A stretch of DNA of 64,000 nucleotides from Callorhinchus milii (Eukaryota), in assembly GCF_018977255.1 (NCBI RefSeq), contig NW_024704742.1:123940001-124004000 (forward strand), read 5' to 3'. The position numbers and the translations under genes were made by a program. The notes below the pieces were generated by a model. It searched no databases, had not been told where the DNA came from, and worked only from the letters and a program-made list of their open reading frames with translations. Every line of letters starts with the position of its first letter. Position 1 is the first letter of the stretch. This document shows positions 1,304-48,566 of this stretch, piece by piece.

Positions 1304-1331
1304 TATTTATAATACTTCAAAGGGATGTGGT
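1304..1331 (-). promoter_or_regulatory. Gzm1 core promoter: TATA box plus GGATGTGGT (ETS:RUNX-type) element
   Basis: TATAAATA (minus strand) at 1304-1311 and GGATGTGGT at 1323-1331; the arrangement is conserved across paralogues. Confidence 0.6.
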
Positions 1332-2411
1332 TTTCTTGTTCTTATACATGTTCAGCGAGTATTTCTTATTAATCTCTTTCGTCACTGTTTCCGGGAAGCC
1401 TCATCAAGTGTGCTAAAACACGTGATATCTTTCAGGATGACAAATCCGTATGACAATCCAGAGTATCTATGTTACTTTATTTTATTATTTTATTTATCTT
1501 ATTAATTAGTTTACTGGAATAGGAAATAGAGAAGGCGATAACGAATAGAATTAGAGTTCTTGGCTTTGTGTTTGGAGGAATAGAACACGAAAGTAAAAAA
1601 GACAGTAATGTTAAATTTATATAAAATGTTATTAAGTCTACATTTGGGGGACTATTTCTTTCCCCCATTCAGTGATATAAATGGCAATCTATGTAGTTTT
1701 CGATGCCCCAACAATAATACTTATTGTTTATCTACCAGAAAGTAAGGACCCGATTGGCGGATCGCTTTACGGGAGTAATGATCCCTTAAAAAAATATATT
1801 TAGTTACTCAAAGCACGACGTTTGTGGAAGAGTGCTGTGTGCAATTGATTGTTGCAATTCGCCAACATAGTACAGTCAATTCACTTCACAGTATATTCTG
1901 TGAAGCGCTTTTGTCATCTCAATCGTATGATAAAGCGTACTATCAAATGCCTGGATTATTATTATTATTATTATTATTATTACTGAGGACAATTCTGGTT
2001 TCTACAAGAACAATATTGTAGAAATGAACAAACTGCAGCATAGATTTACTAGTGTGTTACCAGAGATGAAAGGATGTAAATATAAAGAAAGACTGGACTG
2101 TGTAGAGTATTTTCTTCTCTTTGAAGATGAGATTTTTGGTCATTCGAAATCTGACAAGCGCTAGTTTAGTTCTCACAAGGTGGATAGCAGGTACCAGAAA
2201 CTCCCCGCAAGCTTCTTGGTGAATCAAGAGCAACAACAATTTATACGTTTATAGTGTCTTTCACGTAACGTAGTGTGTCGGGTGGTGGACAGACATTAAA
2301 GAAAGACAAGACAATAACCATGGGTACAGTTCACACTGTGTAGTGAACATTGCGATGAGTTATGTATAATTAACACAGATGGTGCTAATGATCTTTATGT
2401 AAGTGTTATGT

Positions 2412-2780
2412 GTGGAGTCCTGTAGTTCAGTGGTTATAGCACTCGCCTCTCAAGTGGGGGACCTGGTTTCAATTCTCAGCAAGGCGAAACATTGGTCAAG
2501 TTTCCTTAATCCACACTCCTCTGATTTCCTAGTAGTAAGTAGGAACTTGGTTGTTAGTTGATCGGCGGATCGCTTTTCTGGGGGTAATAATTCCTTCAAA
2601 AAAAATGGTCACTCAATCCATGACTGTTTGTGGGACACTGTTGTGTGCAATTGGCTGCTGCATTTCACCAACAAAATATACAGTCAATTCATTTTGCAGT
2701 ATATTCTGTGAAGCCTTTTGAGATGTCTCAAAGACGTGATAAGGTGTTACATTGAATGCAAGGATTATTATTATATTATT
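2412..2780 (+). mobile_element. tRNA-derived SINE, older subfamily
   Basis: Head gtggagtcctgtagttcagtggtt (A box) to ggtttcaattc (B box), a Deu-like core and an (ATT)n tail. Same subfamily at ~15463-15770(-), 16222-16600(+), 21015-21320(-), 41980-42345(+) and 59892-60220(+). Confidence 0.8.
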
Positions 2781-5700
2781 ATAAGATAGCATTCATTCAT
2801 TATGGGTTGGGGGAATGTGGTATTCATGTGATTATTATCATTGGTGATTATTATTGCATCATTCATAGCACTCCTACCTCCTCCCGCAATATATTCACTG
2901 TCAAAAATCCATAACTTAAAGACCGAATGATTTCACAAATGAGTAGTGATGAAATTCTAGAAAGTCTTAACAGGATGTGTGACTACTGTGGGTTGCTTTG
3001 AAATTGAGAGAATTCAGTACCACATGAAATACATTCGGAAAGAGTATCACCAAGAGCTATTAATAAAAGGAAATATGATAATTTGGGGGTTAAGATTTCA
3101 TAGAGCAGAATATCTGTGTATGTGTGAGTGGGAAAGGGAGGGAAATAATCACTGTTTTAAGAAGTTAGTCAGAAAATAATTAAGAAGATGCATGATATTT
3201 TTTATGAATGGAAATGTGTTTTACTACTTTGTAAAACATGTAACATTCTCCTCTCTCAAATTTATTTTTCGTGCAATGTTTTATATGGAGTCCTGTAACG
3301 TAGTGGTTTGGATGCTCACCCTTGCTAACTTCAATACTTGCCTCATTCATAGATGGAGAAATATGAGATGAAGCCTAATGTTGCAAACGGATTTTGATTG
3401 TGCTGAACTGGTCCTTGGTTTCCGTGAGATTTATGCAGTCTGGAGCTGATTCCCGTTTGGTACCATTAATGAGCTTAGATAGGAACATAGGAATATATGT
3501 GACAAAAAAAGACTTGCCCCCAAATAAATAAAAATGCTTTCTTAACCTTTTAGTGCTTTATATATAAATGAGCCTATGAGCCCTGCAAATGAGCTCTAAA
3601 ACAATACTTCCAGATACACCAGAGCCAGCAGAACAAGCTTCAAACCGATCTACTGACATTGGGCCGTCAATCAGTAAGACTTGATTCTGCAGCAACAATG
3701 TAATCTGTTTCATCTAAACTCAGATCTGTTGACTAGAAACTGTAATTACTATCTGAGGTATACTCTTTCTGGATATTCCAACCATCCCTCCCTTGCCTTC
3801 TTCAAGGCCCGTCTCAAGACTTCTTCGTTGACCGCACCTTCGGTCACCCTCCTACCCCTCTCCCTCCCTGCCCTCCACCCCTGCTGATCCCAACTCCCAG
3901 CTCGGGTGCACATCCTTCACTGTCCAGTGCTTTATCACGTCTTCCCGATGTGAATGGCGCTATTTAAATATAATTTGTAGTTGCTGTTATGCAGCCAACT
4001 AGCACTTGATTGTTCTGTTCAGGATATGAGTCAGTGGCAACCATGTCCTTGTCTCACCAGCCAACGGTACTTTGGTGAATAGGTTTTAAGCAATCAGGAG
4101 ATTAGGTTAACTACTTGGGTCTAATTTGCAGGAGAGAGAGCCAAAATATTTGGTATTCCTCAAGGCAATCCTTGTATCAATTAACACAAGAAACATTTTA
4201 AGAAATACAATGCAGATTTATTACTGTTGTGCTAATTAAGAACTCAGAGGAAATCTTTTATGTTAAAACTCAATATACAAACTTACAAACCCTGCACCAG
4301 GAAACTGCCTATAGATGGTCGTTCCTGGGCTTTCTTCACTAGCAAGCAACCAGTTGCCCTTTAGAAGCTGGTGAGAAACAAGGAAAACAGCAGGAGTAGT
4401 GAGATGAGTGCAACAACAACTTGCATTTCATAGAATCATGGAATCATATAGCACAGAAGGAGGCCATTCAGCCCATTGTGACTGTGTTGGCTCTTTGAAA
4501 AAAGCTATCCAATTGACTTCCACTCCCCCGCTCTCTCCCCATAGCTCTGCAAACTTGTCCTCCCCAAATAATTATCTACTTCTCTCTTAAACGTTGTTAT
4601 CGAATCGACTTCCATCACCATTTCAGGCAATGCATTCCAGTATTTATATGCCCTTCACATCAGGTAGCATGTCAGAGTGCAGATAACAACAAATTACATT
4701 TGTATAGTGCCTTGCACATCGGGGTGACGTCCCAATATGCTGGATAGTCAGGGATTTGGAGCTGAGCAGGGGGTTGGTATTAGGAAGCATGGAGGGCAGG
4801 AAGGGTAGGGGTAGGAGATGACTTGATCGAAGACGCAGTCAAAGAGGAGTATCTTGAGATGGACCTTGAAAGAGGCAATGGAGGGGGCGAGGCGAAGGGA
4901 CTGTGGGATGGAGTTCCAAGGGATGGGGGCAGAGAGGCTGAACCGCTGATGGTGGTGCGGGCTTGGCGGGGGATGGTGAAAGCCGGAGTCTGCTGCATGG
5001 AGGGAGCGGACAGGTCTATACGGTGCAAGGAACTTGCTAAGCTGGAAACATTAGCAAATGTGTGGCAATTACTTATTCCCACAAGGAATGCCTTTATGAC
5101 AGGGAGAAAAGGCAAGGTGAAGGAATTTTCAATGAGAGTTTCATAAATTCCATAAGGACCAGTTAGCTGAAAGCTCAGTGATCAGTGGTGGGATGGCTGG
5201 GATGTGGAATAAGTGGACTGAAGTGAATGAATAGAGGATATAGGCAGGCTAATAGGGTTAAAACAGATTGCAGGGTTGGGCATGTGTTGGCTGACTTTGT
5301 TCTGTGAATCAAATGTTCCACGGGTTAGTTGTGTAAGTAATATTCCACAAGTAATTGACTAAACCACAAGTGATAACCATGGTCAACGAGAATGTATCTT
5401 TGTATCAAATGTGTCGAATGCAATGAACGTTATTTACTGGACAAATAACCACTCGTTTTCTTCACACTGAAACCAAAACACAGCTTCTCATATATAAGGG
5501 CTCAAACCTCTGATGTTTTCACGTGAGTCACTAACGTAGGCCTTACCACTAACAGGAAACTGGGACATCTGAGTTATTCCTCTGCTATCTATGTATACAT
5601 TGTCACTTATCAATCACCATCTCTAGCCTGCAGTTCATTTGTATTTTATTTCATTAGCTTATGAAGTTGCTATGCCTGAAAATTCATAGAAGTTATTTTT

Positions 5701-12321: not shown

Positions 12322-15948
<3,627 letters not shown>

Positions 15949-15994
15949 GTTGACAGCAGTCAGAATGTTAGTGTAGACTGACAACTTGAGCCTC

Positions 15995-16023
15995 TATTTG
16001 TAAGACGGGCTGGAGGATGTGGT
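15995..16023 (-). promoter_or_regulatory. Gzm2 core promoter: TATA-like box plus GGATGTGGT element
   Basis: TACAAATA (minus strand) at 15995-16002 and GGATGTGGT at 16015-16023. Confidence 0.6.
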
Positions 16024-17546: not shown

Positions 17547-21505
<3,959 letters not shown>

Positions 21506-21551
21506 GTTGACAGCAGTCAGAATGTTAGTGTAGACTGACAACTTGAGCCTC

Positions 21552-21580
21552 TATTTGTAAGATGGGCTGGAGGATGTGGT
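21552..21580 (-). promoter_or_regulatory. Gzm3 core promoter (duplicate of the Gzm2 promoter)
   Basis: TACAAATA at 21552-21559 and GGATGTGGT at 21572-21580. Confidence 0.55.
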
Positions 21581-22198
21581 TTAGTCGCTTTCATGTGATT
21601 TCTTGCCCTATTACATGTGTATCTCGAAGGTCACTGATGTGCATTTCGCAGAAAACGTGCATCATGAAAAGAAGGGACCCTAAACTCAGCAACACTGAAG
21701 TGAGTAAAGATTATGAATAGCCATTTGAACAGTGAATGTAACTGTAAAGAAATCATGTGATCTTCTTAATAACAGCATAGTGAATTGAAATAAATAAGTT
21801 GCAAAGTCAAAAATCAGAAGACATTGATGCAATACTATTTTTTCTTGCTTGTGTCTGTTTGTGTGTAGATAGATAGGTGGGGACGGATAGATGGAATTGG
21901 AATTGGTAAATAATTTATGCTCTATTGAGGGTATCCTGTAACTCAGTGGTTAGAACGCTCGCTTTGCAAGTGAGAGACCTGGGTTTGATTCCCGGCAGCG
22001 CGAAACGTTGGGCAAGTTTCCTTACTCCACATGGAACACCTCTGTTTCTCTAGCAGTAAGTAGAAACCAGGTTGTTAGTCAATTGGCAGATCGCTTTTCC
22101 AGGGGTAATAATTCCTTCCTCCCCCCCAAAATAATAAATTGGTAACTTCAAACCACGACTGTTTGTGGGACATTGCTACGTGCAATTGGCTGCCTTTG

Positions 22199-22524
22199 TG
22201 GAGTCCTGTGGTTCAGTGGTTAGAGCACTCGCTTTGCAAGCGAGAGACCTGAGTTCAATTCCAGGCAGGGCAAAACCTTGGGTAAGTTTCCTTACTCCAC
22301 ACGCCTAATAATAATCCCTCCAAAAAACAAAAACAATAATAAATTGGTCATTTTCAATCTACGACTGTTTGTGGGACATTGCTGTGCGCAATTGGCTGCC
22401 GCGTTTGCCCACAAATATACAGTCAATTCACTTTACAGTGTGTTCTGTGAAGCGCTTTGGGACGTCCTCCTGACGTGAAAAGCGCTATATCAAATGCAAG
22501 GATTATTATTATTATTATTATTAT
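22199..22524 (+). mobile_element. Young tRNA-Ala SINE nested in an older SINE; present only in duplication copy 2
   Basis: The empty site ggctgcctttgtttcgccc is at ~16473-16491 in copy 1. The filled site is flanked by a short (t)ttgt repeat. Confidence 0.88.
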
Positions 22525-23588: not shown

Positions 23589-26500
23589 CTAGATCTCAGT
23601 ATTGCTGGATGCTTTGATTCTGCTGTTAATCCAGGAAAGGTACTTTTTGGAAAGTCGTGTGTAAACACCAGGTTTCTTAGGTTTTCCGCAACCATCTCCG
23701 AAAGAAACGATTCCTCTGAACACTCTCTTGCATATCAGTGGACCACCTGAATCTCCCTGAAAAAGAAATAATAAAAGTATATTTCAAGCATATATGGGAA
23801 ACCATAAACATTACACAGAGAAGTATTTACCATGTAGATATCTGCACTTTTTGGGCAATTCGTCTGTTATAAGCATTTTGAGACGTCTCAAAGATGTGAT
23901 AAGGCACTATATCAAATCCAAGGATAATTATTATTATTAATATAAGAAACAACTGATTTTCATTGGGAAGTTTATATAGCAATCTGCTGATGAAATTGTG
24001 CAACCTATAGGCAGAACCAAGGAATTTACAGCACAAATTAATGCCACTTGGCCCATCATAGCTCCATCAGCTTGATTTGGGATCAGGATAAGTCAGGCAA
24101 CTTCTAAGATAATGATTCTGTCACACAGTCATGAATTGTATTGTATATTGTATTCTCCCAGTGTCCTGGCCAACAATCCCCGTGATTAAAAATTGGTTGA
24201 ACATTTCATGGTTGTTTGTGGGACATTACCATGTGCAAATTGTCTGCTGCATTTGCCTCAAAATACACAGTCATTACACTTCATCACTATATTTAATGCA
24301 AGAATTATCATTATTATTATTATTACATATTTTTAAAACAAATAACAATATTCTTTAATGGGAGCCCCCAAAGTTTCTTGCATCCTGATCACAGCCAATA
24401 AGGTCATGTCAGGCTTGTCTAGACCCTTCCTCCCATCTATCTGAGTATTCTCCATCACAGGCTCTTTTGTGTCAAAATACAATTTTCAGATCTACAATGA
24501 TGAATATCAATCAGGTTGTAATAGCTATTACAATCAAGACCATTACAACCGATTGATATTCATTCTCAGATTTAGACTGTTGTACATTCTATGTAATATG
24601 TAATAAAAATAGAATTGTCAAACATATTTGATGTACACAGTATTAGACTGCACCGGTTTGACATGAGATGAGGTACAATTACAATACCTCCATGTAGAGG
24701 ATCACTACAACACTTTATTCACTTTACTGTTGCATCCTTCTGATCTTTGGTTTTAGTTGCTAACTCCGAATTTTCTTTTACAATTCTTTAGCCAAGGGAT
24801 AGGTTGAACTTAGCTAATTAGATTTTTAAAATATTAGATTTTATTTTTTTAAATTCTTTTTCTCTTTTGGATTGCTCCACGTCACACACATACTAACTAA
24901 GCAGATAACCTGAAGCCCTGCTACAGCTTAGAACAGACCCATCTCTCCCAGTGCCCAGTCTCCAAGGGAATGAGATTGGTTGATTGACTGTGTTTGAATC
25001 AGTATGAGCCTTGTCCTCTATCGCTTGACACAGCCTCTTTGGATCTTTAAACACTGCACCTCTGCACCATGGAAGTCATTTTACCAGTGTCTGAGTTCAG
25101 TTCTCTGTTTCAGAATGTTGTGCACCTGACAGACACTCACCTGACAGGCATCTTTTCCTCCTCGTTTATCACCAGCACATAGCATATCATCAGTTATTTG
25201 GGAATTATTTTTGTAATATTCTGAACACTTTTTCCTGTCTATGATAGTTATGTTCACTTCCTGCAGCATATCAGAGGGTTGAGAGTTTCCAGCTGCTGTA
25301 ATCCCCCAACCAGCAACATTACACTTGGTTCCAACTTTGACATCATCTCCAGATTTAGGTAACGGCAAGAAATTTACAAAACTATTAGGCTTTGCTTTAG
25401 ATTTAAGCTGCAATAAAAGATAACTTTTATTAAAAAGATATACTAAATAGTGAAAGATCATTTGTTTTTAAAACATTATTAACACACTATTAAAATACAT
25501 TTTTAAATTAAAGAACCCCTATGGTGGAGCGGGTCGCCCCAGCTCCACCATGCACAAGATCCAGTTGATTCAAAACTCCAACTCCCGCATAATCACCAGA
25601 GCACTAAACTCTGTCTCCCCATTACACCAGTTTTAGCCAGGCTCCACTGGCTCCCTGGGCCTGAACGGATCGATTTCAAGATCCTCACACCCGTTTTCAA
25701 ATCCCTTCATGCCCTGGGACCTCCCTACCTCTCCGACCTGCTTACACCCAACTCACTGCCTCTGCTCTGCTCGACTGGCTCCAGCTTTCTGCATGTCTCT
25801 CGTGCTCTCCGTTCCACCATTGGTGGCCACGCTTTTAGCCACTATACCCCAAAGCTCTGGAACACTCTTCCTCTATCCCTCCACCTTACCCCTTTATTCC
25901 CCATCTTCAGCTCATGCCTAAAGACCTTCCTCTTCGACCGTTTCTACAGTCACCACCCCCTCCCCTGGTTTGTGTCGTGCTCCACCATTGTCAAGTGCTC
26001 TGAGATGCTACCTTGAGTGAGGGGCAAGGTATACAAATGTAAGTTGTTTTATTATTGAAAAGAAAGTGCAAATTAATATAAGTACTTGTCGTTCGGAAAC
26101 ATTTTGTTGTTTGGAAGGATAGTATGGAATCAAAATTGAATCATTCATAATTCGAGACTTGCCCAAGGTTTCGCCTTGCTGGGAATCGAAGACAGGCATC
26201 TCGCTGGAGGTTCAAATTGCAGTATACCCAGGTATACTGCAATTTGGACCTCCTGTGTCTAATTATTTTAACCTGAGGAACTGATTTTTTTGATATTTGC
26301 CATAATTAGAAACACAGTCAATACCTTACCTTCAGAAGCATGATATCATTTTTTTGTTGTTTGTGGTTAAAAGATGGATATACGATCATATCTTTGATGA
26401 TGAATATTTGCTTTCCTTTTTCTTTTTTTGAAAGTGAGAGAGCTCCAAGGACCACTTGTTTTTTTCCCATGAGTTCCCTGGAGAGAAATGCCAACAAAAT

Positions 26501-29500
26501 GAATTTAACTACATTCGCAGCAGGAACATGAGAAATCACACGTTCAGGGAAATCTCCCTTTGTCTATGATGAAATACGTATTTTCTCCACGGAGAGATGC
26601 ACCTAGTTCACCTAATCCTGGAAAGTACAATATATTAGGCTCAGTTTCACAAGAGCCAAGGCAATGGAACCCCAAATAAAGTGTTATTCTGCTGCTGGAG
26701 TTTAACCAGCTAAATCCATGCAATTTACCATTGCAAACACTGACTGGTGAGCTTCTTGCTGTTCGTCCAATTCATCCAGTTTGTCCTACCATTAGCACTT
26801 TGGTTTGTAGGATTAGGAGGAGTCAAGTGGAAGGATCCCGGCCCCCAGTGACGAGTCTGTGGTTCCAAGTCCCGTTGTTCCAACATATGTTGACAAACCA
26901 GTGTCTTGGAGTACTGTAGATATACTTGGCTCAGGAACTAGATTACTGAAATCACCAGAGCTGGTCTACTGGATTCCAATATTCCATTGTCAGGTGTGTT
27001 ATCGTGAAGCTATCTCAGCCACAAAAAGACCCAGCATGTTCCCCACCCCTCATTTAGGATCATGGAAATCAGGCTGCACTGGAAAGGTCATTGCAGTCTA
27101 TCTGTCTGCTCTCAATCTTTTGAAGAATCTCATGCCTATTCTCATGCCCCAAAAACTATTTCTTTGCTAATCTAGGAATATACTGGACTGGTACAATTAA
27201 TGTAACTGAAACCATAATATAGTTTCTGTTTGAAGCAGCAAGTTCTCAGGTTTTACTAGATTATCATTTCCCCCCATAAACTATTACTTTAAATTGCTGC
27301 ACAAAGTAATATTGCGGATCAGACTTACATTTTACAATGTGCTGCAGTCAGGATCCAGTTGGGTTTGATCAAAGCTCCTCCACATACATGTGTGAATCGT
27401 TTCCGTGTTTTGTTAAAAGCCTGAATAGATGCCATGTAAGGTTTTGAATGAGATCTAACCTTACTTCCTCCAATAATTTCCACACAATCATCTATAATGA
27501 TAAAAGATAAATAAAAAGCATCCTGATACAATAACAACTTGCATTTGTATAGCACTCTTCAAACAGGGTAGGATTTTGAAACGCTGAATACTACAGAGAT
27601 CACATAATTTGAAAGCAATTTCTAAGCTAGGGGTACATTGAACAACATTTTACCAGAAGCAAAAATATATTTAAATATCTTCCTTATTAGCTATATTAGT
27701 TCCGTGGAGACCTGTAGCTCAGTGATTAAAGCACTTGCCTTGCAAGTGAGAGACCTGGGTTTGATTCCCAGCAGGGTGAAATGTTGGGAAAGTTTCCTTA
27801 TTCCACACGCCTGATAATAATCCCTCAAAAAAAAATAATAAATTGGTCTCTTCAATCCACAATCTTTTGTGGGATACTGTTGTGTGTAATTGGGTGCTGC
27901 ATTTCGCCCACAAAATATACAACCAATTGACTTTACAGTATATTCTGTGAAGCACTTTGAGACAACAACAAAATTACATTTGTATAGCGCCTTTCATGTT
28001 AAGAGGACGTCCCAAGGCGCTGGGTGGGGGTCGGGGGAGAATGGAGGACAGAGTGGAAGCAAGGAGATCAAAAGCACAGTTGAAGAGCAGGGTCTTGAAG
28101 CGGGTCTTGAAGGTGGTAAGTGAGGGGCGAGGCGGAGGAACGGCGGGATGGAGTTGATGTCTAACAGACATTCTTCAGGACAGCAGTGGTCCTGGAGTCA
28201 AGGGTGGAGGCAGAGAGGTAGAGTTGGGTATCATCTGCATACATCCGGGTCTGGCCTCCTCTTCATCCCCCGAGTCCTCCGTTCCACCCTCGGTGGCTGT
28301 ACCTTCAGCCACTATGTCCCGAGGCTCTGGCATTTCCTTCCGCACTCCCTTCGCCTCGCCCCCTCTCTTCCTATTTTCAGATCTCTGCTGAAGACCTTTC
28401 TCTTCGACCGCGCCTTTGGTCACCTTCCTCCCCATCCCCCTGGCTCGGCGCCCGGATCTGTTGCTGTAAAGCGCTCTGAGACACCGTCCGGCATGGAGGG
28501 CGCTATATAAATCCAAGTTGTTATTGGAAGTTGACCACATGTCTACGGATGATGTCACCAAAGGGGAGTAAATAGATATTGAAGAGGAGGGGACCAAGGG
28601 CAGAGCCCTGAGGAACACCACATGAGACAGTCCGGGGTCTAGAGGAGAAGCCGTTTGAGGAGATGAAATGCAGGCAGTGTGAGAGGTACGATCTGAGACG
28701 TCAGATAAAGACGTGAAATGCGCCATATCAATGCAAAGATTATTATCTTTATCTTCATTTTGAGTTTCACCCACAATATACAGTCAATTCACTTTAGGGT
28801 ATATTCTGGGAAGCACTTTGAGACATCTCAAAGACACAAAAAGGCACTATATCAAATGCAACGATTATTATTAAATATCTTCATTTTTATAGTGAGTTAA
28901 CAGTGTTGTCTGCTTTATTTATTGCAGTAAAGCTTTATTTTCACTATAAAGCAACTAAGAAAGGATACTTTCTTTGAGCAGGATTATCACCCAGAAATGT
29001 TAATGCAAATGCAAGGATTATCATTATCAGAATCAGATCTAATTTGGGAATGTATTTCATAGAGTATTTGTCTCCAAACTTTAGACTGGAAGAGTTATGG
29101 GGGAAGTTAGTAGAAACATTTTCACACAAAAACAGGTATTAGAACCTCATTGCCACAAAATAATTATTTGATTAATTATTGATGCTAAAAAGGATTAGCA
29201 TAAACATCTCAATATCCTAAGTATCTACCATATAGTTGTAATAACAGTTTTCAGTTGAATACCTTCTGGCTTATACAAATAAACATTTTTTGTTATTTTA
29301 CAAGGTTCATTAGAAAGGAATGAATGCCCACAAAATGAGTTTAAATGTATTCTCGGCGAGAACATACAAAAAGCATGAAAATGATAATGAGTTCATGAAA
29401 GATACTCTTTCCATGTTACAAGATAACTTTAACTAAAACTGCTAGTCATAGACTATCACTTTACTTACAGCCTGGTGTTAGAGTGAACAAAATTGTCACA

Positions 29501-29526
29501 GAACTGAGCAAAACCTCAAGCAACAT
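23589..29526 (-). CDS. Gzm4: intact granzyme A/K-like tryptase, 267 aa
   Basis: Exons 29469-29526, 27329-27491, 26330-26477, 25141-25407 and 23589-23756 (804 nt, in frame). [63 protein letters not shown]. No Cys93 (YPSFN). Confidence 0.88.
25540..26050 (+). mobile_element. L2 3' fragment in Gzm4 intron 3
   Basis: LHWLP, IDFKIL and LWNTLP-type RT C-terminal segments followed by an L2 tail. Confidence 0.72.
27704..28750. mobile_element. Triple-nested insertion in Gzm4 intron 1: SINE(+) interrupted by L2(-), which is interrupted by an L2 3' end (+)
   Basis: The SINE at 27704-27963 resumes at ~28700, with TGAGAC duplicated at 27958-27963 and 28694-28699. L2(-) pieces lie at 27964-28243 and 28526-28693; the L2(+) piece is at ~28244-28525. 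Confidence 0.72.
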
Positions 29527-29574: not shown

Positions 29575-29603
29575 TATTTATAAGACAGGTAGCAGGATGC
29601 AGT
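29575..29603 (-). promoter_or_regulatory. Gzm4 core promoter: TATA box plus a variant element (GGATGCAGT)
   Basis: TATAAATA at 29575-29582 and CAGGATGCAGT at 29593-29603, with the same spacing as Gzm2. Confidence 0.55.
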
Positions 29604-31570: not shown

Positions 31571-31607
<37 letters not shown>

Positions 31608-31741: not shown

Positions 31742-31742
31742 T

Positions 31743-35737: not shown

Positions 35738-38700
35738 TTAATCCATTGTCATGTTATGAGTTGTAACCCTGATTTTATCATTTATCCAGCGGAGATTGTT
35801 CTTGGATAATCGGGTATAAATGCCAGGTTTGTTGCGAAGTGCACATTCATCTCCTCCACCTATAATTATGCCACAGTACACTTTTTTCCTAAACATTTTA
35901 GTTTGACAAATTAATGGTCCACCCGAATCTCCCTGAAACAAAACAAGGAAAAAATTCTTAACATAATAAAGACAAGAGTTCACATATTGCCATCTTTATA
36001 CAGCTGAAAGTGAGGCAATATTGTTGGTAGAAAGCTTAATAATAATAATGATACTTTCATTTCATTTAGCGTCTTATCACATCATCGAGAAGTCTCAAAG
36101 CACTTCACAGAATATACTGCAAAGTGAATTGACTGTTGATTTTGTGAGCGAGCTTGATTTATACTTGCTCCATATCATTTCTGAGCACCAAATTTCAGAG
36201 TTTTTGTAAGGGTGAAATACAGTAAACTTCCCATAAGTCGTATCAATTGGGTCCATACATTTAATATGACTTATGCAAAGTATGAGTGATGTCAAACTTG
36301 CTAGAATATGAACTCTTGAATGGAACTTGGGCAGATGTATGACGGAGTCAATTAGACGATTTATACAGATCTGACTTATGCAAGTTTTACTGTAACTTTT
36401 TAAAACAACAATTTCATCAAAATTCTTAGTCTAAAAACTCTCAGGCATTCCAATAACCAGTTTCAACTTTCCCATCAAGGAAACAATGGGGAGCAGAGGC
36501 CTTAGCAACTTGTTTCACTGAGGTTATACTCAATGGCGCAAATTGATGTGTTTCTCAAATCACCTCCTTTAAAATCAGTGCTTAGACATGTGAATTACAG
36601 GGTTTAGCATTTATATGAATAGGCACTATTGTTGTTAGACTTATTTTATGAAACTTAAGCACAATTAATTTAGCAAAGAACCTCAATGGTGTTAACAACC
36701 ATTTACATTTACATTTAAAATTATTTAAACACAAATTCATAACAGGTATGGAGCCTCTAACATCAAGAGGACGTTCCATAGCACTTCACAGGCTTTACTG
36801 TAACATGGAGTGTTTTGTACATTAGTACATTTGTCTGAATAAACATTGTAATGTAATGCAACAGCCACAGTTGTGAATAGCAAATAGACATTGCAACAAC
36901 TGGAGCCATAAAACAGCAACCTCAAAGCATGAACTTTTGAAGTGAAACAACAATTGGCTTTGTCACTGAATGAATCTTATAATAATAATAAAAATACTTG
37001 CATTTAATATAGCGCCTTATCACGTCGTTGAGACACCTCAAAGCGCTTCACAGAATATATTGTAATGTGGAGTGACTGTATTTTGTGGGCGAAATGTCTT
37101 GCACAAATTTCACTTTTAGGGTCCAGGAATTTACAGCTAAAATAATCAAAATCTAGTAATAATGTATTACTTACCAAACATGAATCTTTTCTATATTTTT
37201 TATCACCAGCACATAACATTTCCTCTGTTATCAAAGGATCGCCATTATAACACACTTCACTGTTGCAGACCTTCCTGTCCATTATTTCTATATTCACTTT
37301 CTTTAGAGTATCAGAAGGTGTTGTACTTCGTGGATTAGTTATTCCCCATCCTGCAATACTGCACTTGGTTTTAGGTTTGATATCTTCTGTCGATTTTGGA
37401 AGCTTCAGCGTTGACACATACTTGTTCAGAACAGCTTCATGAGACAACTGTGACATATTAAGCAAAGAATAGCATTTGTTTATAACTGTTAGTGCTGAGT
37501 AAGAAACAAGCAGTAGAATACTGTTGTTGCACAACCTACGTCCTTTGTGGACTAGATTTGGGCAGCCTCAAATGAGCTCTCAGTAAACTAGGCTGAGAGC
37601 ACAAAGTTGTCTTTAATTTGGTATTAAATGGCACAACATTAACAATACGAGTGAGACTGGATGGCATTCTGGTGCAACAGAGGGCGCACTTTTTGCATGT
37701 TAGTACACGGATATTAATTACAGGTTAATTACACTGCTTCATCCAACAATTGGCTACACACAGAACAATCCCACACAGGAGAGATAAGATTCATTTGGTT
37801 AAGATCCATTACATTTATCGCTAACTTTTATTTGATTATTTGGGGCATAAGATTTATTTAGATCTGTTTGATTACATATTCTAGGAAACCCTAAACTTCC
37901 GCCAAGTCTAATAATAATAATAATCCTTGCATTTGATATAGCGCTTTTCACGTCGGGAGGATGGCCCAAAGCGCTTCACAGAACACACTGTAAAGTGAAT
38001 TGACTGTATATTTGTGGGCGAACGCGGCAGCCAATTGCGCACAGCAATGTCCCACAAACAGTCGTAGATTGAATATGACCAATTTATTATTGTTTTTGGT
38101 TTTGGAGGGATTATTATTATTAGGCGTGTGGAGTAAGGAAACTTGCCCAAGGTTTTGCCCTGCCTGGAATTGAACTCAGATCTCTCACTTGCAAAGCGAG
38201 TGCTCTAACCACTGAGCTACAGGACTCCACTGTAAGCTTTTACAACCATTTTATTTTAAAATGTAAGATGGTACAGAGTTAAGCAAAATTCTTAAATTCT
38301 ATGTTCATTTGGAAGACGATCCTTTTTTAAGAACAGCAGAAAACCAGCTTGCAAATTATGACTGAATTTAAGAATTTCCCACAATTTTCCATCGTGTAAA
38401 ATTTTAAGACTATACGGTTGGTTTTTCAGGTCATAATTGGATGGAATTTCAGGCCTGAGACTCAGTCAACAACATTTAAAATGGAATAGGGTAAAAACTT
38501 TGAAAAGAAAAAATATATAAAAGAGTAGTGGGGAAAAGAATGAGGATTTGGGTTTGGAGTAGATGGCTAGAGTGGGTGAGCTAGCAACAGCTTAAGCTTA
38601 ATTGATCAAATATCTCCTTATTATCCTGTAATTTCTTGGATCCTATTGTGTTCTGGTATTCTGAATTGGCCCACAGTTAACGTGGTGGTGGGTGGGGAGC

Positions 38701-40957
38701 TGGGGGTTATAATCGTACTAACAGTAGCAACAGCAGGGCGAAACCTTGGGCAAGTTTCCTTACTCCACACGCCTAATAATAATCCCTCCAAAACAAATCA
38801 ATAATAAATTGGTCATTTTCAACCACGACTGTTTGTGGGACACTGCTGTGCGCAATTGGCTGCCACGTTTTGCCCACAAATATACAGTCAATTCACTTTA
38901 CAGCATATTCTGTGAAGCGCTTTGAGACGTTGAGAAGACGTGAACAGCGCTATATCAAATGCAAGGGTTATTATTATTATTATTATTATTATCAGCTTTT
39001 CAATCTTAAAGTGTCCTGTGAGAAAATCAAGCCCCATCAAACTGCCCCAGTTGGGTTCTCTGTGCTCTGGCGTTGTAAGCCATCGCCCAATCACAGATTC
39101 TTACCGGATCGAACTTTAGTTACCTGTAATAGCATGATGTCGTGCCTAAGCAAATGGAAATCTTTATGAGGTACAACCTGCACGACTTTCAATAACTGTT
39201 CCTTCTTTCCCGTTCTGTTAGAAAGTGAATGAGCCCCGAGAAGTACTTCAATGCGTTTGTGCATTATATTTCTGCAATTGTAAAAAGAAATTGAGCAGTT
39301 GAAAATGCAGCCGCAGATTCACGTTCATGTGGTCTCTGGCCTCATTGTACGCGATTGCTCGTGGCTGTCTTCATAAGCCTGAAGTGACACTGAGTGATAA
39401 AAGAGTAAATATTAGACAATAATAAATGAGATGGTATGTGCCTATTGCAGCGATTTCCAAATTTGTGGGAGCAGGGATCAGACCAAGTGATAAACCGACC
39501 CACTAACAGCTAAAATTCAGAAATATTAACTGAAATTTTTTTAAGGGCATGATTCTTTGATCATTATTAATCTCACCTACCTGGGCAGGTCAGCATATTT
39601 TATTTTTCATTGGGTAGCAATTCCCATGCTAAACTCACACGGTGAGTGTACAACCATTGACAATTCACCCCAGACCTTTATTCCACATCAGACAGTATAT
39701 TTCCTCACACAGCTTTCAGGGAAAACTAGGGGCTTAAGCTAAACAAAATGAAATTTTATCCCAACAACAACAACAACTTGCACTTATATAGAGCTCTCCA
39801 AGTAGGGTAGCGTCTCAGAGTGCTTAACGGTGGCTGACGCCAAGCCGGAAGGGAGGGAGGTGGCCGTAAGTACGTTCGACACTTTAACATCAGAGCTAAT
39901 TGGGTTTAAAATTAATCTTACATTTAAATAAGATTATACACAGGAAGAGTAAGCAGGTTTTTAGAGGTATTTAAAATCAACTCCCGCACCCCGACATCGT
40001 TGGGAAATTCTTATGGACTTCATAGCCTGACTAGCCCATGGTTTAATGTATGACTTCCATCTGGAACCATAGAAATACATGCAACACAGAAGAAGGCTAT
40101 TCCGTCCATTGGGTCTGTGCTGGTTCTTTGAAAGAACAATGCATTCAGTCCCATTTACTTGCCTTTTTTCCGTACTCCTGCAAATTATTTATTTTCAGAT
40201 ATCTATCCAGCTACTTCCTTATCAAGACTGCTTATAAAAAACACTGTCTAGTAGTGGTATTGCATTAGAGCATCAGCCTAGATTATGTCAAATTGCTTCA
40301 CAGGATCTACTGTAAAGTGCAGTGACTGTGTATTTGTCGGCAAAATGCCTTGGGTGGGGCTTAAATCTACAACTTTCTGATCAAGAGTTTTGCCAATTGA
40401 ATCAAACTAATACTTAAATGATAGTAATTTCTGACAGAACAGATGATAGGTATTTTATTAATGGTCACTGAGTTATTTTTTACAAAAGGTAAATCTTAAG
40501 CAATGAAGGAAAATAAAGGGCAACAAGGTTGTTCTGACTAAATGAATCACTTTTAAAGCATCAAAGATGAATTTCAACAAATATTGTAATCTGTAATATT
40601 ACTTTAAAATCACACCTGCACAATAGGGAATAAGAGAAACAAAGTGACTTACAGTGAACAGTGTGCTGCAGTCAGTATCCATTCAGGTGTGATCAAAGCT
40701 CCTCCACATTTATGATTTCCATCTACCTGAATAGATGCCATGTATGGTCTTGAGTGAGGTTTAACATCTTGACCTCCGATGATCTCCATGCAAATATCTA
40801 TGGCAGGCAATAATAAATAAACAATAAATACGAAATGGTCAGCTCATAGAAAAATTGCTAGTTAACATAAAATTAGATCTGTTCTATACTTACAGCCTTG
40901 CAAGGCCAGGAAAATTATTTTAAAGGCAAGGATCACCATATTAATAACATCCATCAT
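35738..40957 (-). CDS. Gzm5: intact granzyme K-like tryptase, 274 aa
   Basis: Exons 40894-40957, 40653-40797, 39124-39271, 37175-37447 and 35738-35932 (825 nt, in frame). [56 protein letters not shown]. The ME propeptide, Gly215 and KPGIYT resemble mammalian GZMK. Confidence 0.87.
37909..38230 (-). mobile_element. Young full-length tRNA-Ala SINE in Gzm5 intron 3
   Basis: Same family; a 5'-truncated copy lies in the opposite orientation at 38735-38991. Confidence 0.88.
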
Positions 40958-40989
40958 CTTCTTACTTGCATCAAAAAGAAGTGTAGTTT

Positions 40990-41019
40990 CATTTTAAGGT
41001 GTTTTCAGAAGGATGTGGT
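40990..41019 (-). promoter_or_regulatory. Gzm5 core promoter: TATA-like box plus GGATGTGGT element
   Basis: TTAAAATG (minus strand) at 40990-40997 and GGATGTGGT at 41011-41019. Confidence 0.5.
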
Positions 41020-42854
41020 GACACTTCATCCTACAGAGCATAACACACTGATGTGGAAGGTTTACAGACTTGTGATATGTGTGATCATTTTGGAGTGAAA
41101 TTAGCTGCGTTTTTTAAAGCGTTTGAGTTGACTGAAAACGTTATGAAATGCCACTAATTTACTTCTTATATGGTTTGGTTGAATATTTACGAAATTATTC
41201 TTCCCAACCTGTCAACAGAAAACCGATGAATGGCTTCACGGGGGAATTATGTTTTGTTTTGGCAAAAGAAGGGATTCGTACATAAGAACAGAAGAATTAG
41301 GAGCAGAAGTAGGCTATTTGGCCCCTCAAGCTTGCCCCGCCATTCAATATGGTCATGGCTGATCTATTCTAACTCCATCTACCCGCCTTAGCCCGATATC
41401 CCTTTATCCCTTTATCCACAAGAAATCTATCAATCTCAATTAAAGGATAACAGTTAGAAAGCAAAAAGCTGTAACTGACTTTTGGCATTAGTGATCTTTA
41501 ATGTCTCCAAAATTGCTTGTCTTATTAAGAACATAAGAAATGCTAGATAAAAAAAAGACCAAGGTCCATCTTATTCGCCTTGCGCCTCCTGGCGGTTGCC
41601 TGGACATGTTCCGAACGACCCATGTACTATATCCCATAATGTTATTTCCTAAAGGAAAACTGTCTAAACTGTTATTGCTTCATGAGGAATCTATTATAAA
41701 GGCCCATCATTAGAGTATACTAATCATAGAGCTTCACCAGTGAAGTGCTCACCAGTGAGTGCTGTTCACAGAAGTAATTAACCTTAACTGTAATAACTGG
41801 AAAATAGATATTAATGGAGACTTTAAAAAGTGTTTTTGGACTGAGGTGCTGTAACAGATCAGGCTCAACTCTGCATTGAGTAGGCTGCCAACACTCATTA
41901 CCAAGACGTAATGAATAATGATCACTTGAGCAGGGCTATGGAACTACATCCAGAAAGAGGAGGCCAGACCAGGAGGCATATGTAGAGTCCTGTAGCTCAG
42001 TGGTTAGAGCTCTCAACTCGCAAGCGAGAGTCCTGGCTTCTATTCCCAGGCAGAGTAAAATGTTGAGCAAGTTTCCTTAGTCCACACGACGCTGTTTACA
42101 TAGTAGTAAGTAGCAACTTGGTTGTTAGTTAATTGGTGGATCACTTTTCTGGGATAATAATTCCTTAAAAAAAATTAGTTACTCAATCCATGACTGTTTG
42201 TGGGACACTGCTGTGCCCAATTGGCTGCCGAGTTTCACCCACAAACTATACAGTCAATTCATTTTACAGCATATTCTGTGAAGCGCTTTGAGTCATCTTG
42301 AAGATGTGATAAGGCACTACATCAAATGCAAGTTTTTTTTTATTATATGTCATTGTAGAGAAAATTAGGAAAAAAAACTACTGTATTTATTTTTAAAACA
42401 AAAGTAATGGTAATGGAAAAGTTAGTGACTTTAGAAACATGCTATGACATTTGGGATAGGTCAACAAAATTGTGCGAAGAGACCATTTTCTACAAGTCAC
42501 AAACATCTGCAAGACTTGGGTTTTGAGATATGAGAGAGGTTTGAGAAGAGTGCAAAGGAAGAAAAACATGCAAAATTGGATGTGAACCAATAAGATAAAT
42601 ACCTGTGATAGTCAGATATGTGTGAATAGAGACTGATAGAATTGATCCTGCATGCATCAGATCTCACACATTAGGTGTGAAAAGCATACATTCTAAGACC
42701 CTGCTGAACACTTATGCTAACCACTACTGTTAAGTGTTTCTTTTAAGAAAAGACTGAGATAGAGCAGAAATAAGGCTCACTTTGTCTCTTGCAAAACGAG
42801 ACCAAAGATCAACAGTCTATCAGTTTCAGGGTCTAGTCATCACCTCATGAAATT

Positions 42855-43448
42855 ATAGAATCATACAGCACAGAAGGAGGCCATTCGGCCTATCGTGTTC
42901 TATGCCAGCTCTTTGAAAAGAGCTATCCAAATTAATCCCACTCTCTCCCCATAGCCCTGCAAACTTGCCCTCCCCAAATAATTATCTACTTCTCTCTTGA
43001 AAGTTGTTACTGAATCAGTTTCCACCACCCTTTCAGGAAATGCATGCCAGATCCGAACAACTCCCTTCTCCTCACCTCGCCTCTGGTTCTTTTAACAACT
43101 ATTTCAAATTGGTGTCCTCGGGATACTGACCCACCCGCCAGTGGAAATAGTTTATCCTTGTCCACCCTATCAAATCCCCTCCTAATTTTGAAAACTTCTA
43201 TTCAATCTCCACTTAACCTATTCTGCTCCAAGGAGAATAATCCTAGCTTCTCTAGTCTCTCCTGATAACTGGAATCCCTCATTCCTGGCACCATCTTGGT
43301 AAATCTCTTTTGCACTCTCTCCAATGCCTTGACATCCTTCCTAAAGTGTGGTGCCCAGAACTAAACACAGTACTCTAGCTGAGGCCAAACCAGTGTTTTA
43401 TAAAGGTTCATCGTAACGTCCTGATTTTTGTATTCTATACTCCTATTT
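42855..43448 (-). mobile_element. CR1 LINE 3' fragment, interrupted by a SINE at 43449-43777
   Basis: Reverse complement of a CR1 RT C-terminus (VQFWAPHFRKD-type) and 3' UTR ending ctgtgctgtatgattctat. Confidence 0.8.
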
Positions 43449-43777
43449 AGTCCTGTAGCTCAATGGTTAGAGCACTCGCTTTGCAAGTGAGAGACCTGAG
43501 TTCAATTCCAGGCAGGGCGAAACCTTGGGCAAGTTTCCTTACTCCACACGCCTAATAATAATCCCTCCAAAAACCCAAAACAATAATAAATTGGTCATTT
43601 TCAATCTACGACTGTTTGTGGGACATTGCTGTGCGCAATTGGCTGCCGCGTTCGCCCACAAATATACAGTCAATTCACTTTACAGTGTGTTCTGTGAAGC
43701 GCTTTGGGATGTCCTCCTGACGTGAAAAGCGCTATATCAAATGCAAGGATTATTATTATTATTATTATTATTATTAT
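43449..43777 (+). mobile_element. Young tRNA-Ala SINE
   Basis: Same family, with an (ATT)n tail. Confidence 0.87.
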
Positions 43778-44888
43778 AAAGCCCAGTATCACGTATCCTT
43801 TTTTTTAAGTTTTAGGTCCATTTCCTGCTCAGATGTCAGCCTCTGTCAGAATTCTGTAGGTTCAAGCCAGACTTTGGGATTTTGAATTCATATGGTCTAA
43901 GTTGACACTCCAATGGAGTGCTTGGAGGACACTGCACTACAGAACCTTCAATAATACAGCCCAACTCCAGGATTGGATTAAAGTGTCAGCCTAGACTATG
44001 GAAGTTCAAGACTATGAGTTCCAAATCCCAACATGGAGCTCAAATTCACAATCTTCTGACTCAGGGGTGAGAGTGCTACTAACTCAACTTGTCTAACACT
44101 TTGGAAGTACAGATGATCAGGCGTTTGAAGAAAGCATGTGAAAATTGGGATTAAAAATACGAAGAGGTGCGACAATCTGATAAAACAGTAAAGCACCAAT
44201 TCTTACAACTAAATGTTGACAAGATGGAAGCCATACTCCTTGGCTCCCATCAATGTCCTCTGTCTTGTGGCTATGACCTTCTCAATTTCCCCGGAATATC
44301 CCTCAGACTCACCGAACTGGTGGCAACCTAGGCATCAGGTTCGACCCACACCTGTCCTTCTTTCCTCACACCTAGTCCCTAAGCAGGAATGCCTTACTCC
44401 ACCTCCGCCACATTGCCCGCCACTGTCAAATGCTCTGGGACTCTACCCTGCGTGAAGAGTGCTATATAAATGCAGGTTGTTGTTGTTGTTATGCCTATGT
44501 TCCCAATGATATGGAATCTGAATAATTGATCCAAATGCACAAGAACAGTTATGCAGTTTGCTTTATTTTCTATTTCAAACAAAGGCTCAAAAGAGAATAA
44601 GTGGTGCCATGTGGTGCAGTGGGATTCAATAAACACCTTGCTCTGAGCGTCAGTGCAGACTTAATGGGACAAATGACTTTCACTCTTAAATTTCTATCAA
44701 TTATTACCAAATAATATAACTATGAAGAGTTATATTCTGAAAAAAAGCAGCCTCTTAAAGCAAGTTAGCAAGCAGACAGTACTGTGGATTTGAGTTCCAT
44801 TTAGTTCAACCCAAGAGCAGGCAATAATGATATCAAGCAAAGAAATACAGAAATACGTTGTTTCTGCATACAAAGAAACTGATCCCAG

Positions 44889-47800
44889 TCAGTTTTGCTT
44901 CATTGTTGTATTGTAATTTGTGCCTTTAATTGATTTCTTAATCCACGTGACATGTTTACTGGATAGAAGCATATAGATGCCAGGCTTTTTGTCAACAGCA
45001 CAACCCTTTCCAAAAGAGGCAACTCCAGAGAAGACAGGTTTACCGAAACGTTTTGTTTTACACAGTAAAGCATCACCAGCATCGCCCTGCAACAAAACAA
45101 ATACAAATTATCACTCAACTTATATAAACATTAATATAACAATTCACACCATAATAAGTATACCACACTCCACTCCTTCAAACTCCAAAAATGTAAGGAA
45201 AGAGTTTACACCTCAAGCTTGTTTCTGTTTTACAATTATTATTATTATTATTTTCTAAGTTATTTTCTGTCTCCCCTTTTGGTTTCATATTTTGTACTAG
45301 TCTGTGATGGGAGGATAGGCTAATGGCCTATACATGTAATCTTGGTCAATAGTGAGTGCCCTTGAAGGTGATACAAGATATTTGTACAAACAGAGTGGCC
45401 TGAATTCCTTCACTTACTGAGGACAAATTCCTGTTATTCTTTGAATCACTGTGTAAATTATGCATGTTAGTTATACACAACGACAATTATTGTATACAAG
45501 GAATGGATAACTTACCACACATACACTGTTTTTACCCGTTTTGTCACCAGCACATATCATATCGTCAGTTATGACTGGATTCCGATTATAATAATTTTTA
45601 CTGTTGCAGGTGGTTCTGTCTATGATTCTTACAGTTGTTTCCTTCAAAGTGTCAGATGACTCATCATCATCTACACTGTCCTGACCCCATCCTTGAACAA
45701 TGCATTTTGTTTCAGGTTTGATATCTTTTGTTGATTTTGGCAGCGAAAGGATTGATACAAATTTATTCAGTTTAACAGGACGATCTAACTGTAACACACA
45801 AGAAAATCATAATAAAATGTAGACTATGCTTAAAAGTGATGTGTTTATGCCAGTTTTATTTCCCCAAGATTTTGCAATGCAATACATGTAAGTGAATCTA
45901 TATTGGCAGATGAGGTTTAATCCAGAGAAATGCAAAGTAACGCATTTTGGGAGGAAGAATGAGGAGAGACAATATAAGATGATGGTACAATCTTAAAGAG
46001 TGAGAAGGAAAAGAGAGACCTGGGATTTCATATAAGCAAATGTTTGAAGGTAGCAGGACAGGTATATAAAGCTGTTAAAAAGCATATGGGATACTAGGCT
46101 TTATAAATAGGGGCATCAAATACAAAAGTCAGTAAGTTATGATGAACCTTTATAAAACACTGGTTAGGCCTCAATGAGAATACTGTGTTCAGTTCTGGGC
46201 ACCACACTTTAGGAAGAAAGTCAAGGCATTGGAGAGGGTGCAAAGGGGATTTACCAGGATGGTACCAGGAATGAGGGACTTCAGTTATCAGGAGAGGCAA
46301 GAGAAGCTAGGATTATTCTCTTTGGCGAAGAGAAGGTTAAGAGGAGACTTAATAGAAATTTTCAAGATGATGAGGGGATTCGGTAGGGTGAACAAGGAGA
46401 AACTATTTCCACTGGCTGATGGGTTGGTAACCCGAAGACACTGATTTAAAATAGTTGTTAAAAGAAACAGAGGGGAGGTGAGGAGAATTTATTTCACACA
46501 ACGAGTTGTTTGGATCTGGAATGCGTTGCCTGAAAGGATGGTGGAAACCGATTTGATAACAACTTCTAAGAGAGAAGTAGATAATTATTTGGGGAGGACA
46601 AGTTTGCAGGGTATGGGGAGAGATCTTGGGAATAGGATTAATTTGGATAGCTCTTTTTAAAGAGCCGCTGCAATCACGATGGGCCGAATGGCCTCTTTCT
46701 GTGCTGTATAATTCTATGATTCTAACAATATTACTGAGCCACAATGTACACTGTTCTGCGGATAATTTCAAAATACCCAGTGAATTCACTTTGCAGTATA
46801 TTCTGTGAATCGTTTTGAGCAAGAACAACAACAAAATTACATTTGTAAAGCACCTTTCACGTTGGGACGACATTCCAAGGCACTGAACAGTCAGGGATCA
46901 GGACCCAAGTGTGGGGAACCCAGTTGTTAGTCGATTGGCAGATCACTTTTCCAGGGGTAATAATTCCTCAAAAAAAATTGGTTGCTCAATCTATAACTGT
47001 TTGTGGGACACTGCTGTGCAAAATTGGCTACCGGGTTTCACCTACGAAATATACAGTTAATCAATTTACAGTATATTCTGTGGAGGACCTTGAGACGTCT
47101 CGAAGATGTGATAAGGCCCTATATCAAATACAAGGATTATTTTTTTTAAATTATTATTGTAAAGCCTCCAAACCATATGATCTCAATGAATTTATCGATT
47201 CTGTGGATAATTGTACAGATGATATCATAATATATCATATTCCATACATTTGAGACAATAACACATTAACAAAGCCACAATTTTTACCTTAAGTAGCGCC
47301 AGGTTATTTTCCTCTGTCTTTTGATTATAGTTTTCACGTTTTTCCGCTATGGCTGTAAATTCCTGCCTTGTCTTGTTATTCTTCAAGGAAAGGGTTCCAA
47401 GGATCACACTTTTTTTCCCTTTGTGACGTTTGCTGAGGTGACTGTGTAAAGAAACTTTGTTACTTGGTGTATTTTTTAAAAAGGTTTTCAATTAGTTCAA
47501 TCATATCAATATCAACATTCACATGAAAATGAAATAACAGCAAACATTCTGTTTAATTTACTGCTTTCATTTTAGGGTGAAATTCCTACTGGTCTATTTG
47601 TGGATACAAGTATAGTATCTTTTTATACATTTTTACCCATTGTTCACACCCAGTACACACAGATCAGTACAGTAATAATAATCATAATAATAATAATAAT
47701 CATAATAATCCTTGCATTTGATATAGTGCTTTTCACGTCTTCTAGGCGTCTCAAAGTGCTTCACAGAATAGACTGTAAAGTGAAGTGACTGTATAATTGT

Positions 47801-48493
47801 GGCCGAAATGCAACAGCCAATTGTGCGCATCCTCTCTCACAAAAAGTTGTGGTATGAAGTGACCAATTTAATATTGTTTTATTTTCTTAAGGGATTATTA
47901 TCAGGCATATTATTATCAGTGGATTAATTGAAACTAAAATTGGCTTACACCACCCTTAACTTATTCTCAGACTGAGACTTTTCTGTTTGCTACACTAATT
48001 ATTATTAAATTTTGATTAAAGTTTCTTAATGAATGATAATTAATCGAAAATGTACAGCAGTTTGCTGGTACGATCTGGAAGTGGTTTGAGATGCCCTACA
48101 CTTTGCAAATTACAACCTTCAAAGCTAGATAATATCTCATATTAAAAGGTATATTGGTGCTCATTTTGTTTTATTAAGTAACTATTAGTATAAACAACAT
48201 GTTACAATACTTACACAATGCAGTTTGCTGTCGTCAGGATCCACTGGCGATGAATCAATGTTGCCCCACATTCATGTTTGTTTTGAAACTGAATGGATGC
48301 CATATAAGATCCTGTCTTCTTAACATCACGACCATCAATTATTTCCACACAAAAATCTACAGCACAAAATGAATACAATTGTTACAAATAATCGTTATTT
48401 ATGGGAATCTTAAACCAGGTTGTGAACATACTTACAGCCTTGACTGACTAAGGCGATAATGATTACTGAGACGAATAATATTACTTGATGCAT
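44889..48493 (-). CDS. Gzm6: catalytically inactive granzyme homologue (pseudoprotease), about 271-274 aa
   Basis: Exons 48436-48493, 48215-48356, 47288-47432 (alternative in-frame acceptor at 47441), 45516-45788 and 44889-45086. All are GT-AG with no stops. Signal MHQVILFVSVIIIALVSQG, FCVE|IIDG, TTANC (H57N), EENNLALL (D102N), NSVCVGDAGDA (S195A, Ser at 189). Eight canonical Cys are retained. Confidence 0.85.
45885..46722 (+). mobile_element. CR1 LINE 3' fragment in Gzm6 intron 3
   Basis: ERVQRGFTRMVPGMR..LGLFSLAKRRLRGDLIEIFK, FTQRVVWIWNALP and a 3' tail ctgtataattctatgattcta. Confidence 0.85.
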
Positions 48494-48541
48494 GCTGAGC
48501 TATTTGTCCAACTGCACAACTTTAGTCTAAGAGCAGTTCTA

Positions 48542-48566
48542 CTTTATAACAGCTGGAGGATGTGGT
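48542..48566 (-). promoter_or_regulatory. Gzm6 core promoter: TATA box plus GGATGTGGT element
   Basis: TATAAAG (minus strand) at 48542-48548 and GGATGTGGT at 48558-48566. Confidence 0.6.

Follow-up and report, generated by a model that had tools for sequence, protein, structure and literature searches.

A putative ETS/RUNX composite element precedes the TATA-like boxes of a chimaera granzyme A/K cluster

Why do the first exons of the granzyme A/K cluster of the chimaera Callorhinchus milii share one short word upstream of their TATA-like boxes, while the DNA around this word is close to random? The cluster lies in the window, i.e., the whole stretch of 64,000 nucleotides (nt) of contig NW_024704742.1 analyzed here, with every gene on the minus strand. 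It comprises seven gene copies, whole or partial, named G1 to G7 after the apparent numbering of a preliminary description of the same DNA; one of them arose recently as a chimeric duplicate. On the gene strand the word reads ACCACATCC, and it precedes (once as a variant) 6/6 first exons of the window, 9-13 nt before a TATA-like box. It is likely that this 9-mer is a functional ETS/RUNX composite derived from an ancestral granzyme A/K promoter and maintained by purifying selection in most paralogues. The element is of a known kind; relative to the literature searched, its core-promoter setting (TATA-adjacent, in granzyme A/K genes) is new, as are the age of this setting and two catalytically dead granzymes of the cluster.

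On the plus strand, GGATGTGGT is found exactly at 1323, 16015, 21572, 41011 and 48558, and the variant GGATGCAGT at 29595, all where the preliminary description had located them and in the same orientation. The sites and the boxes that follow them, with one further match, are:

1323..1331, minus strand: G1, exact composite, then TATAAA after 11 nt, at 1311-1306.
16015..16023, minus strand: G2, exact composite, then TACAAA after 12 nt, at 16002-15997.
21572..21580, minus strand: G3, exact composite, copy of the G2 promoter, then TACAAA after 12 nt, at 21559-21554.
29595..29603, minus strand: G4, variant element, then TATAAA after 12 nt, at 29582-29577.
41011..41019, minus strand: G5, exact composite, then the weak TATA-like TTAAAA after 13 nt, at 40997-40992.
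48558..48566, minus strand: G6, exact composite, then TATAAA after 9 nt, at 48548-48543.
51351..51359, minus strand: sixth exact 9-mer, inside the reading frame 50634-52178 of a long interspersed nuclear element (LINE).

The match at 51351, which the preliminary description had missed, was rejected as a regulatory or promoter site since it falls in the coding sequence of a LINE remnant. The window has six exact matches vs. 0.71 expected by chance, and 0/100 shuffles reach six. A joint element-plus-TATA pattern, derived from the six sites themselves, matches the six promoters and nowhere else on both strands of the window. Two statements of the preliminary description must be reduced. The sites at 16015 and 21572 are copies from one recent tandem duplication, thus the independent sites are four exact ones and one variant, fewer than had been counted. 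The placing 9-13 nt before a TATA-like box is true of 6/6 promoters, but the spacing ranges over 4 nt and is not «fixed». The canonical TATAAA is present in G1, G4 and G6 only (3/6 boxes), with one-letter variants in G2, G3 and G5.

In this word a GGAT core and a TGTGG RUNX site overlap, arranged as in GGATGTGG; the arrangement is exact in 5/6 promoters (4/5 independent ones). GGAT is preceded by A (an ETS-type 5' flank, as in CAGGAT or GAGGAT) in G2/G3, G4, G5 and G6, and by G in G1; this letter was not part of the motif first described. CATCC is invariant in the 5/5 independent promoters. The G4 element retains the ETS half, and its RUNX half is altered at two positions; as read from the sequence, G4 is a natural half-site mutant on an active-site gene. 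Upstream of the G5 element (window 41020-41060) there is another ETS-like AGGATG, 13 nt away and oppositely oriented, and, at a distance of about 38 nt, the partial copy CCACATC; the G5 box is the weakest TATA-like one of the set.

Does this word correspond to a known regulatory element? Published work is cited below by accession number, and the statements concern the available part of each text. GAGGATGTGGC is the composite of the T-cell receptor (TCR) alpha enhancer and CAGGATGTGGT that of TCR beta (PMC2787013). The TCR composites have the same overlapping core GGATGTGG, with a variant GGAT ETS site, in a lymphocyte gene context (PMC2787013, PMC5322934); G2, G3 and G6 match the TCR alpha enhancer 10-mer GAGGATGTGG, and G4 retains the CAGGATG start of the TCR beta form. 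At the level of sequence, the earlier identification of the word as an ETS/RUNX composite thus agrees with both enhancers. The TCR composites lie in distal enhancers co-occupied by ETS1 and RUNX, with demonstrated binding (PMC2787013), whereas the granzyme sites are predicted ones, 9-13 nt from a TATA-like box, in one orientation and in each paralogue. On this composite site Runx1-CBF-beta cancels the phosphorylation-dependent autoinhibition of Ets1 (PMC5322934).

The genes concerned point in the same direction. RUNX and ETS motifs are enriched, and dominant, in Runx3 peaks of mouse CD8 T and natural killer (NK) cells (PMC3827420), and Runx3 binds at Gzmb and Prf1 (PMC8377396, PMC3525900); RUNX and ETS motifs at cytotoxic-lymphocyte genes are thus a feature of mammals likewise. 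The mammalian case differs: granzyme B belongs to the chymase locus, which cartilaginous fish do not have (PMC4646688), and the peaks concerned are mostly distal. A composite at GZMA or GZMK is not described in the available text of the Gzmb/Prf1 papers (PMC3827420, PMC8377396, PMC3525900). No paper on the element in granzyme A/K promoters was found in the literature searched, which covers few subscription journals, and the available parts of PMC4856961, PMC3567031 and PMC6060239 contain nothing on it. One literature match to the string «accacatcc» was checked and rejected, being an unrelated 18S primer.

The likeness to the TCR composite could be coincidental, i.e., the element would be functional but read by a different factor, or would act as a repressor or core-promoter element. 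The factor assignment is indeed sequence-based, the TATA-adjacent position is unlike the distal enhancers which define the composite, and the human LAT promoter is repressed by a RUNX site that neighbours an ETS site (PMC1382244). The LAT proximal promoter differs in being TATA-less, with adjacent sites, to which Elf-1 and Runx-1 bind independently, instead of the GGATGTGG composite (PMC1382244). Since 9/9 letters plus the upstream A match the known composite in 4/5 independent promoters, and since the mammalian relatives of these genes are lymphocyte genes under RUNX3 control (PMC3827420, PMC8377396, PMC3525900), such a coincidence is very improbable.

Is the 9-mer conserved beyond what common descent leaves? 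The five independent promoters were aligned and pairwise identities summed: 82/90 for the element, 61/90 for the TATA region, 41/95 for the spacer, 189/594 for the upstream DNA and 135/361 for the 5' untranslated region, i.e., 91% for the element vs. 32-43% for its flanks. In a motif-blind search, the longest word common to 4/5 independent upstream regions is the 9-mer itself, at 150, 300 and 500 nt, and a shared word of 9 letters is reached by 0/1000 Markov shuffles (150 and 300 nt). The promoters being homologous, the shuffle test of the 9-mer in the window (0/100, above) is not sufficient alone. The four-fold-site distances among G2, G4, G5 and G6 are 0.69-1.14, and under simulated neutral descent such a run survives with P 0.003-0.007 at a distance of 0.7 and <0.001 at 0.9.

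These values bear on the idea that gene duplication or conversion, in a genome which evolves slowly, simply left the 9-mer behind as neutral sequence. In its favour, the promoters share a common descent, the pair 16015/21572 is truly a recent copy, and the chance of a neutral run would be 0.04-0.13 if distances were near 0.5. The near-random flanks are difficult to reconcile with it: conversion would have brought the flanks too, and gene conversion was rejected as the source of the identity for this reason. The paralogues are moreover older than the chimaera/shark split and matching peptides are kept in shark models (see below), thus this explanation is largely refuted already and its probability is minimal.

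How old are these promoters? In a quick tree of 75 protease domains, G6, G7, G2, G5 and G1 (the last as P0048) each cluster with their own shark/ray clade (support 99, 100, 91, 90 and 89, respectively), G4 being unplaced. The paralogues thus group with their own elasmobranch clades and the duplications are older than the chimaera/elasmobranch split, which dates to about 400 million years. The over-long N-termini of several automated shark gene models (P0002, P0037, P0040, P0106) read as translated promoters, and read-through N-termini of this kind can be used to probe promoter conservation where no DNA is at hand. The translated 9-mer is expected as TTS, xHIx or PHP, about 47-50 codons before IIGG. 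TTS was spotted first, in P0002, and the remaining proteins were then scanned with fixed patterns. Among 129 proteins, 9 have at least 32 residues before IIGG and 4 reach at least 46; the peptide is present in 4/4, as TTS at 46 in Chiloscyllium punctatum P0002 and as KPHP at 46, 47 and 47 in Scyliorhinus torazame P0040, P0037 and P0106, respectively. P0037 and P0106 are close paralogues, hence three independent cases (chance about 0.006 each). The G1 promoter of the window translates as KPHPFE in the same frame, 47.0 codons from IIGG, like P0037 and P0106, which then read DIN, compatible with a TATA box. TTS and KPHP, being in different frames, jointly permit ACCACATCC alone, and two G7-type models concur on a single base at 15/15 further positions. 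It appears from these peptides that the element predates the chimaera/shark split; the term «ancient» used in the preliminary description may be kept in this sense, along with a conservation far above that of the flanks.

Outside the cartilaginous fishes, the search for read-through in bony vertebrates returned mostly fused multi-domain models, and most of the 104 domain starts with at least 44 preceding residues follow the tail of a preceding domain. The stray PHP at 47 in P0246, within the coding sequence of the preceding domain, was uninformative, and the same was judged of the stray TTS at 42-43 in the threonine-rich P0318 and P0375, of TTS at 31 in P0204 from pig, and of PHP at 54 and 59. 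When metagenomes were scanned for host granzyme loci, 78 loci with 31-40% identity were obtained, and 1/78 had a granzyme-like short motif.

It could also be that a single half matters, either the GGATG core, bound by ETS alone, or TGTGGT, bound by RUNX alone, the other half being kept for a weaker or gene-specific reason. CATCC is invariant while G4 has lost the RUNX half, the catshark model P0281 retains the RUNX half alone, and the full composite is present in only 55% of the ETS1-bound CAGGATGT regions (PMC2787013). Against this stand the whole 9-mer in 4/5 independent promoters and the matching shark models, which imply both halves; the two exceptions (G4 and P0281) lose opposite halves. 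Dependence on one half is thus an improbable explanation, although less so than either of the two considered above.

Several observations weigh against a functional composite under purifying selection. (i) Random 300-nt windows, with repeats kept, share a word of at least 9 letters in 7/2000 draws; the neutral chance, 0.04-0.13 at a pairwise distance of 0.5, rises to 0.18-0.47 at 0.4, and the four-fold-site distances measured rest on just 41-70 sites per pair. (ii) G4, an intact active-site gene with a broken RUNX half, has no other RUNX consensus up to 500 nt upstream. (iii) The matching shark models are evidence at the peptide level, from two species, and not DNA; the third domain of Scyliorhinus canicula P0281 has TTP at 48 residues, which by eye fits the RUNX half alone, and none of the peptides is present in a cheetah GZMK model, whose 54-residue extension may not reach the promoter. 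(iv) The distal location of the mammalian composite and the repressive RUNX site of LAT, both mentioned above, must be counted here. (v) In nurse shark, granzyme K-like and perforin transcripts are found in an NK cluster and not in the CD8 T cluster; in spleen the latter is without granzyme K-like transcripts, though T clusters express Runx3 (PMC10529500); the element therefore cannot be sufficient. A functional ETS/RUNX composite nevertheless remains the likely reading of the whole.

Are these promoters used? RNA contigs were placed on 40500-48900 for 4 of the 12 runs containing G6, from 2 studies. The RNA status of the runs is the guess of a tool, and the claim that they are RNA rests on splice joints. 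In 4/4 runs, introns 1, 2 and 4, which have canonical ends, are spliced out of the G6 contigs, and the joint table of 3/4 runs shows intron 3 skipped as well. G6 is transcribed and spliced, as the preliminary description had expected from its promoter. The contigs differ from the window at four G6 coding positions (47355, 47375, 45572 and 45678), probably as alleles. The 5' ends of the G6 contigs (48477, 48506, 48501 and 48514) are 71, 42, 47 and 34 nt past the first T of TATAAA, respectively. Those of G5 are 49, 36 and 41 nt downstream of TTAAAA (3/4 runs, two of them deduced from record offsets). Among the contigs listed, seven end 34-71 nt past the box, the furthest 5' ends being 48514 (G6) and 40961 (G5), and none crosses the element; contig ends cannot fix a start site, and their positions are a weak hint that the TATA-like boxes are the real ones.

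The mechanism which may be proposed places the element between about -52 and -40, oriented so that its ETS core faces the TATA box and its RUNX half is on the upstream side. By analogy with mammalian work, RUNX (likely RUNX3 or RUNX1) with CBF-beta would bind the TGTGGT half and, by cancelling its autoinhibition, would allow an ETS factor (likely ETS1) to stay on the variant GGAT core. [quoted passage not shown] The loose spacing (9-13 nt) fits a proximal activator site better than it fits a stereospecific contact with the TATA-binding protein.

Which genes follow these promoters? The coding parts in the window are:

1205..1271, minus strand: G1, coding part of exon 1 (signal peptide), the remaining gene being left of the window.
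12322..15948, minus strand: G2, granzyme A/K-like, five exons, intact frame, triad H-D-S.
17547..21505, minus strand: G3, chimeric recent duplicate, exons 1-3 G2-like and exons 4-5 G4-like, exon 2 frame broken as assembled.
23589..29526, minus strand: G4, granzyme A/K-like, five exons, intact frame, triad H-D-S.
35738..40957, minus strand: G5, granzyme A/K-like, five exons, intact frame, triad H-D-S.
44889..48493, minus strand: G6, predicted pseudoprotease, five exons, intact 274-codon frame, triad N-N-A, spliced in RNA contigs.
59495..63251, minus strand: G7, exons 3-5 of a second predicted catalytically dead paralogue, its promoter being right of the window.

The closest homologues of the cluster proteins are granzymes A and K, and the five-exon structure, the signal peptide and the IIGG start are those of this family. 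The G1 exon 1 matches the start of the C. milii granzyme K-like protein P0048. G6 exon 4 has 100% identity with a Callorhinchus milii granzyme K-like protein, from which the whole predicted G6 protein differs at 2/274 residues. By tblastn, no granzyme first exon was found in the window beyond the six of G1-G6. The tandem duplication relates 13951-16224 to 19501-21781 (98.2% identity over 2282 nt), and 16480-19503 to 22524-25538 (96.7% identity). G3 exon 2 is one base shorter than G2 exon 2, within a G run; G3 could be an artefact of the assembly or a genuine pseudogene of recent origin. At the donor site of exon 1, 6/6 first exons have the same sequence AGGCTGTAAGTA, despite divergent signal peptides (1198-1210, 15884-15896, 21441-21453, 29462-29474, 40887-40899 and 48429-48441).

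The granzyme A/K locus is the sole such protease locus of cartilaginous fishes (PMC4646688, PMC13337447). The elephant shark granzyme A/K (T-cell tryptase) locus described previously is of the same family and the same kind, with five genes counted (PMC4646688); in its available text the S1 pocket triplets are discussed and a loss of the triad in these genes is unmentioned, and the word «promoter» is absent from the main text.

The catalytic triad His-Asp-Ser is present in G2, G4 and G5 only. In G6 the three residues are replaced by Asn, Asn and Ala, respectively, and G7 is without the serine motif. The G6 clade has both Asn in 7/7 elasmobranch rows and Ala in 6, the seventh model being truncated. 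In the G7 clade, 10/10 elasmobranch rows are without His and, where covered, without Ser. Both of these adjacent genes thus have triad-dead orthologues in sharks and skates, and theirs are sister clades in the quick tree (support 95). The term «dead gene», used for Gzm6 in the preliminary description, is appropriate for the triad, lost at all three residues, and not for the gene: with an intact 274-codon frame and spliced transcripts, its status as a pseudogene was rejected. G6 is best described as a conserved, expressed pseudoprotease whose protein is predicted to be catalytically dead. It is basic (43 K+R vs. 25 D+E). G7, known from exons 3-5 only, has a long branch within its clade (0.86), and erosion of its serine motif has gone further than in the shark orthologues, which suggests relaxed constraint in the chimaera.

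Azurocidin (CAP37) is an inactive, antibacterial protease homologue of neutrophil granules (PMC4646688), and G6 and G7 are likewise granule protease homologues of secreted type with a lost triad. It differs by its locus and lineage; G6 is closest to granzymes K and A, and is no more basic than the active G4. No description of triad-dead shark granzymes was found in the literature searched, the coverage being that given above. It must be noticed that public models often fuse neighbouring shark granzyme genes (P0001-P0003, P0510, P0524, P0528), those of P0001-P0003 and P0510 joining G7-type with G6-type. The fused models are named TMPRSS9-like or serine protease 53-like and the dead paralogues are thus hidden.

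A broader proposal is that of an ancestral killer-lymphocyte switch of jawed vertebrates, i.e., a TATA-adjacent composite older than the cartilaginous/bony split, still present at GZMA/GZMK of bony vertebrates and also placing the two dead granzymes in NK-like granules. It is tentative and on balance doubtful. If true, dead granzymes conserved across cartilaginous fishes would be non-enzymatic effectors or regulators in granules. The cluster itself points to one short element by which the oldest granule-protease locus of jawed vertebrates would be connected with the RUNX/ETS lymphocyte programme. Whether this wiring predates the chimaera/shark split can be tested directly at a scale of 9 bp, with G4 as a natural half-site mutant. 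The locus also brings out two conserved granzymes, predicted to be catalytically dead, at least one of which is expressed.

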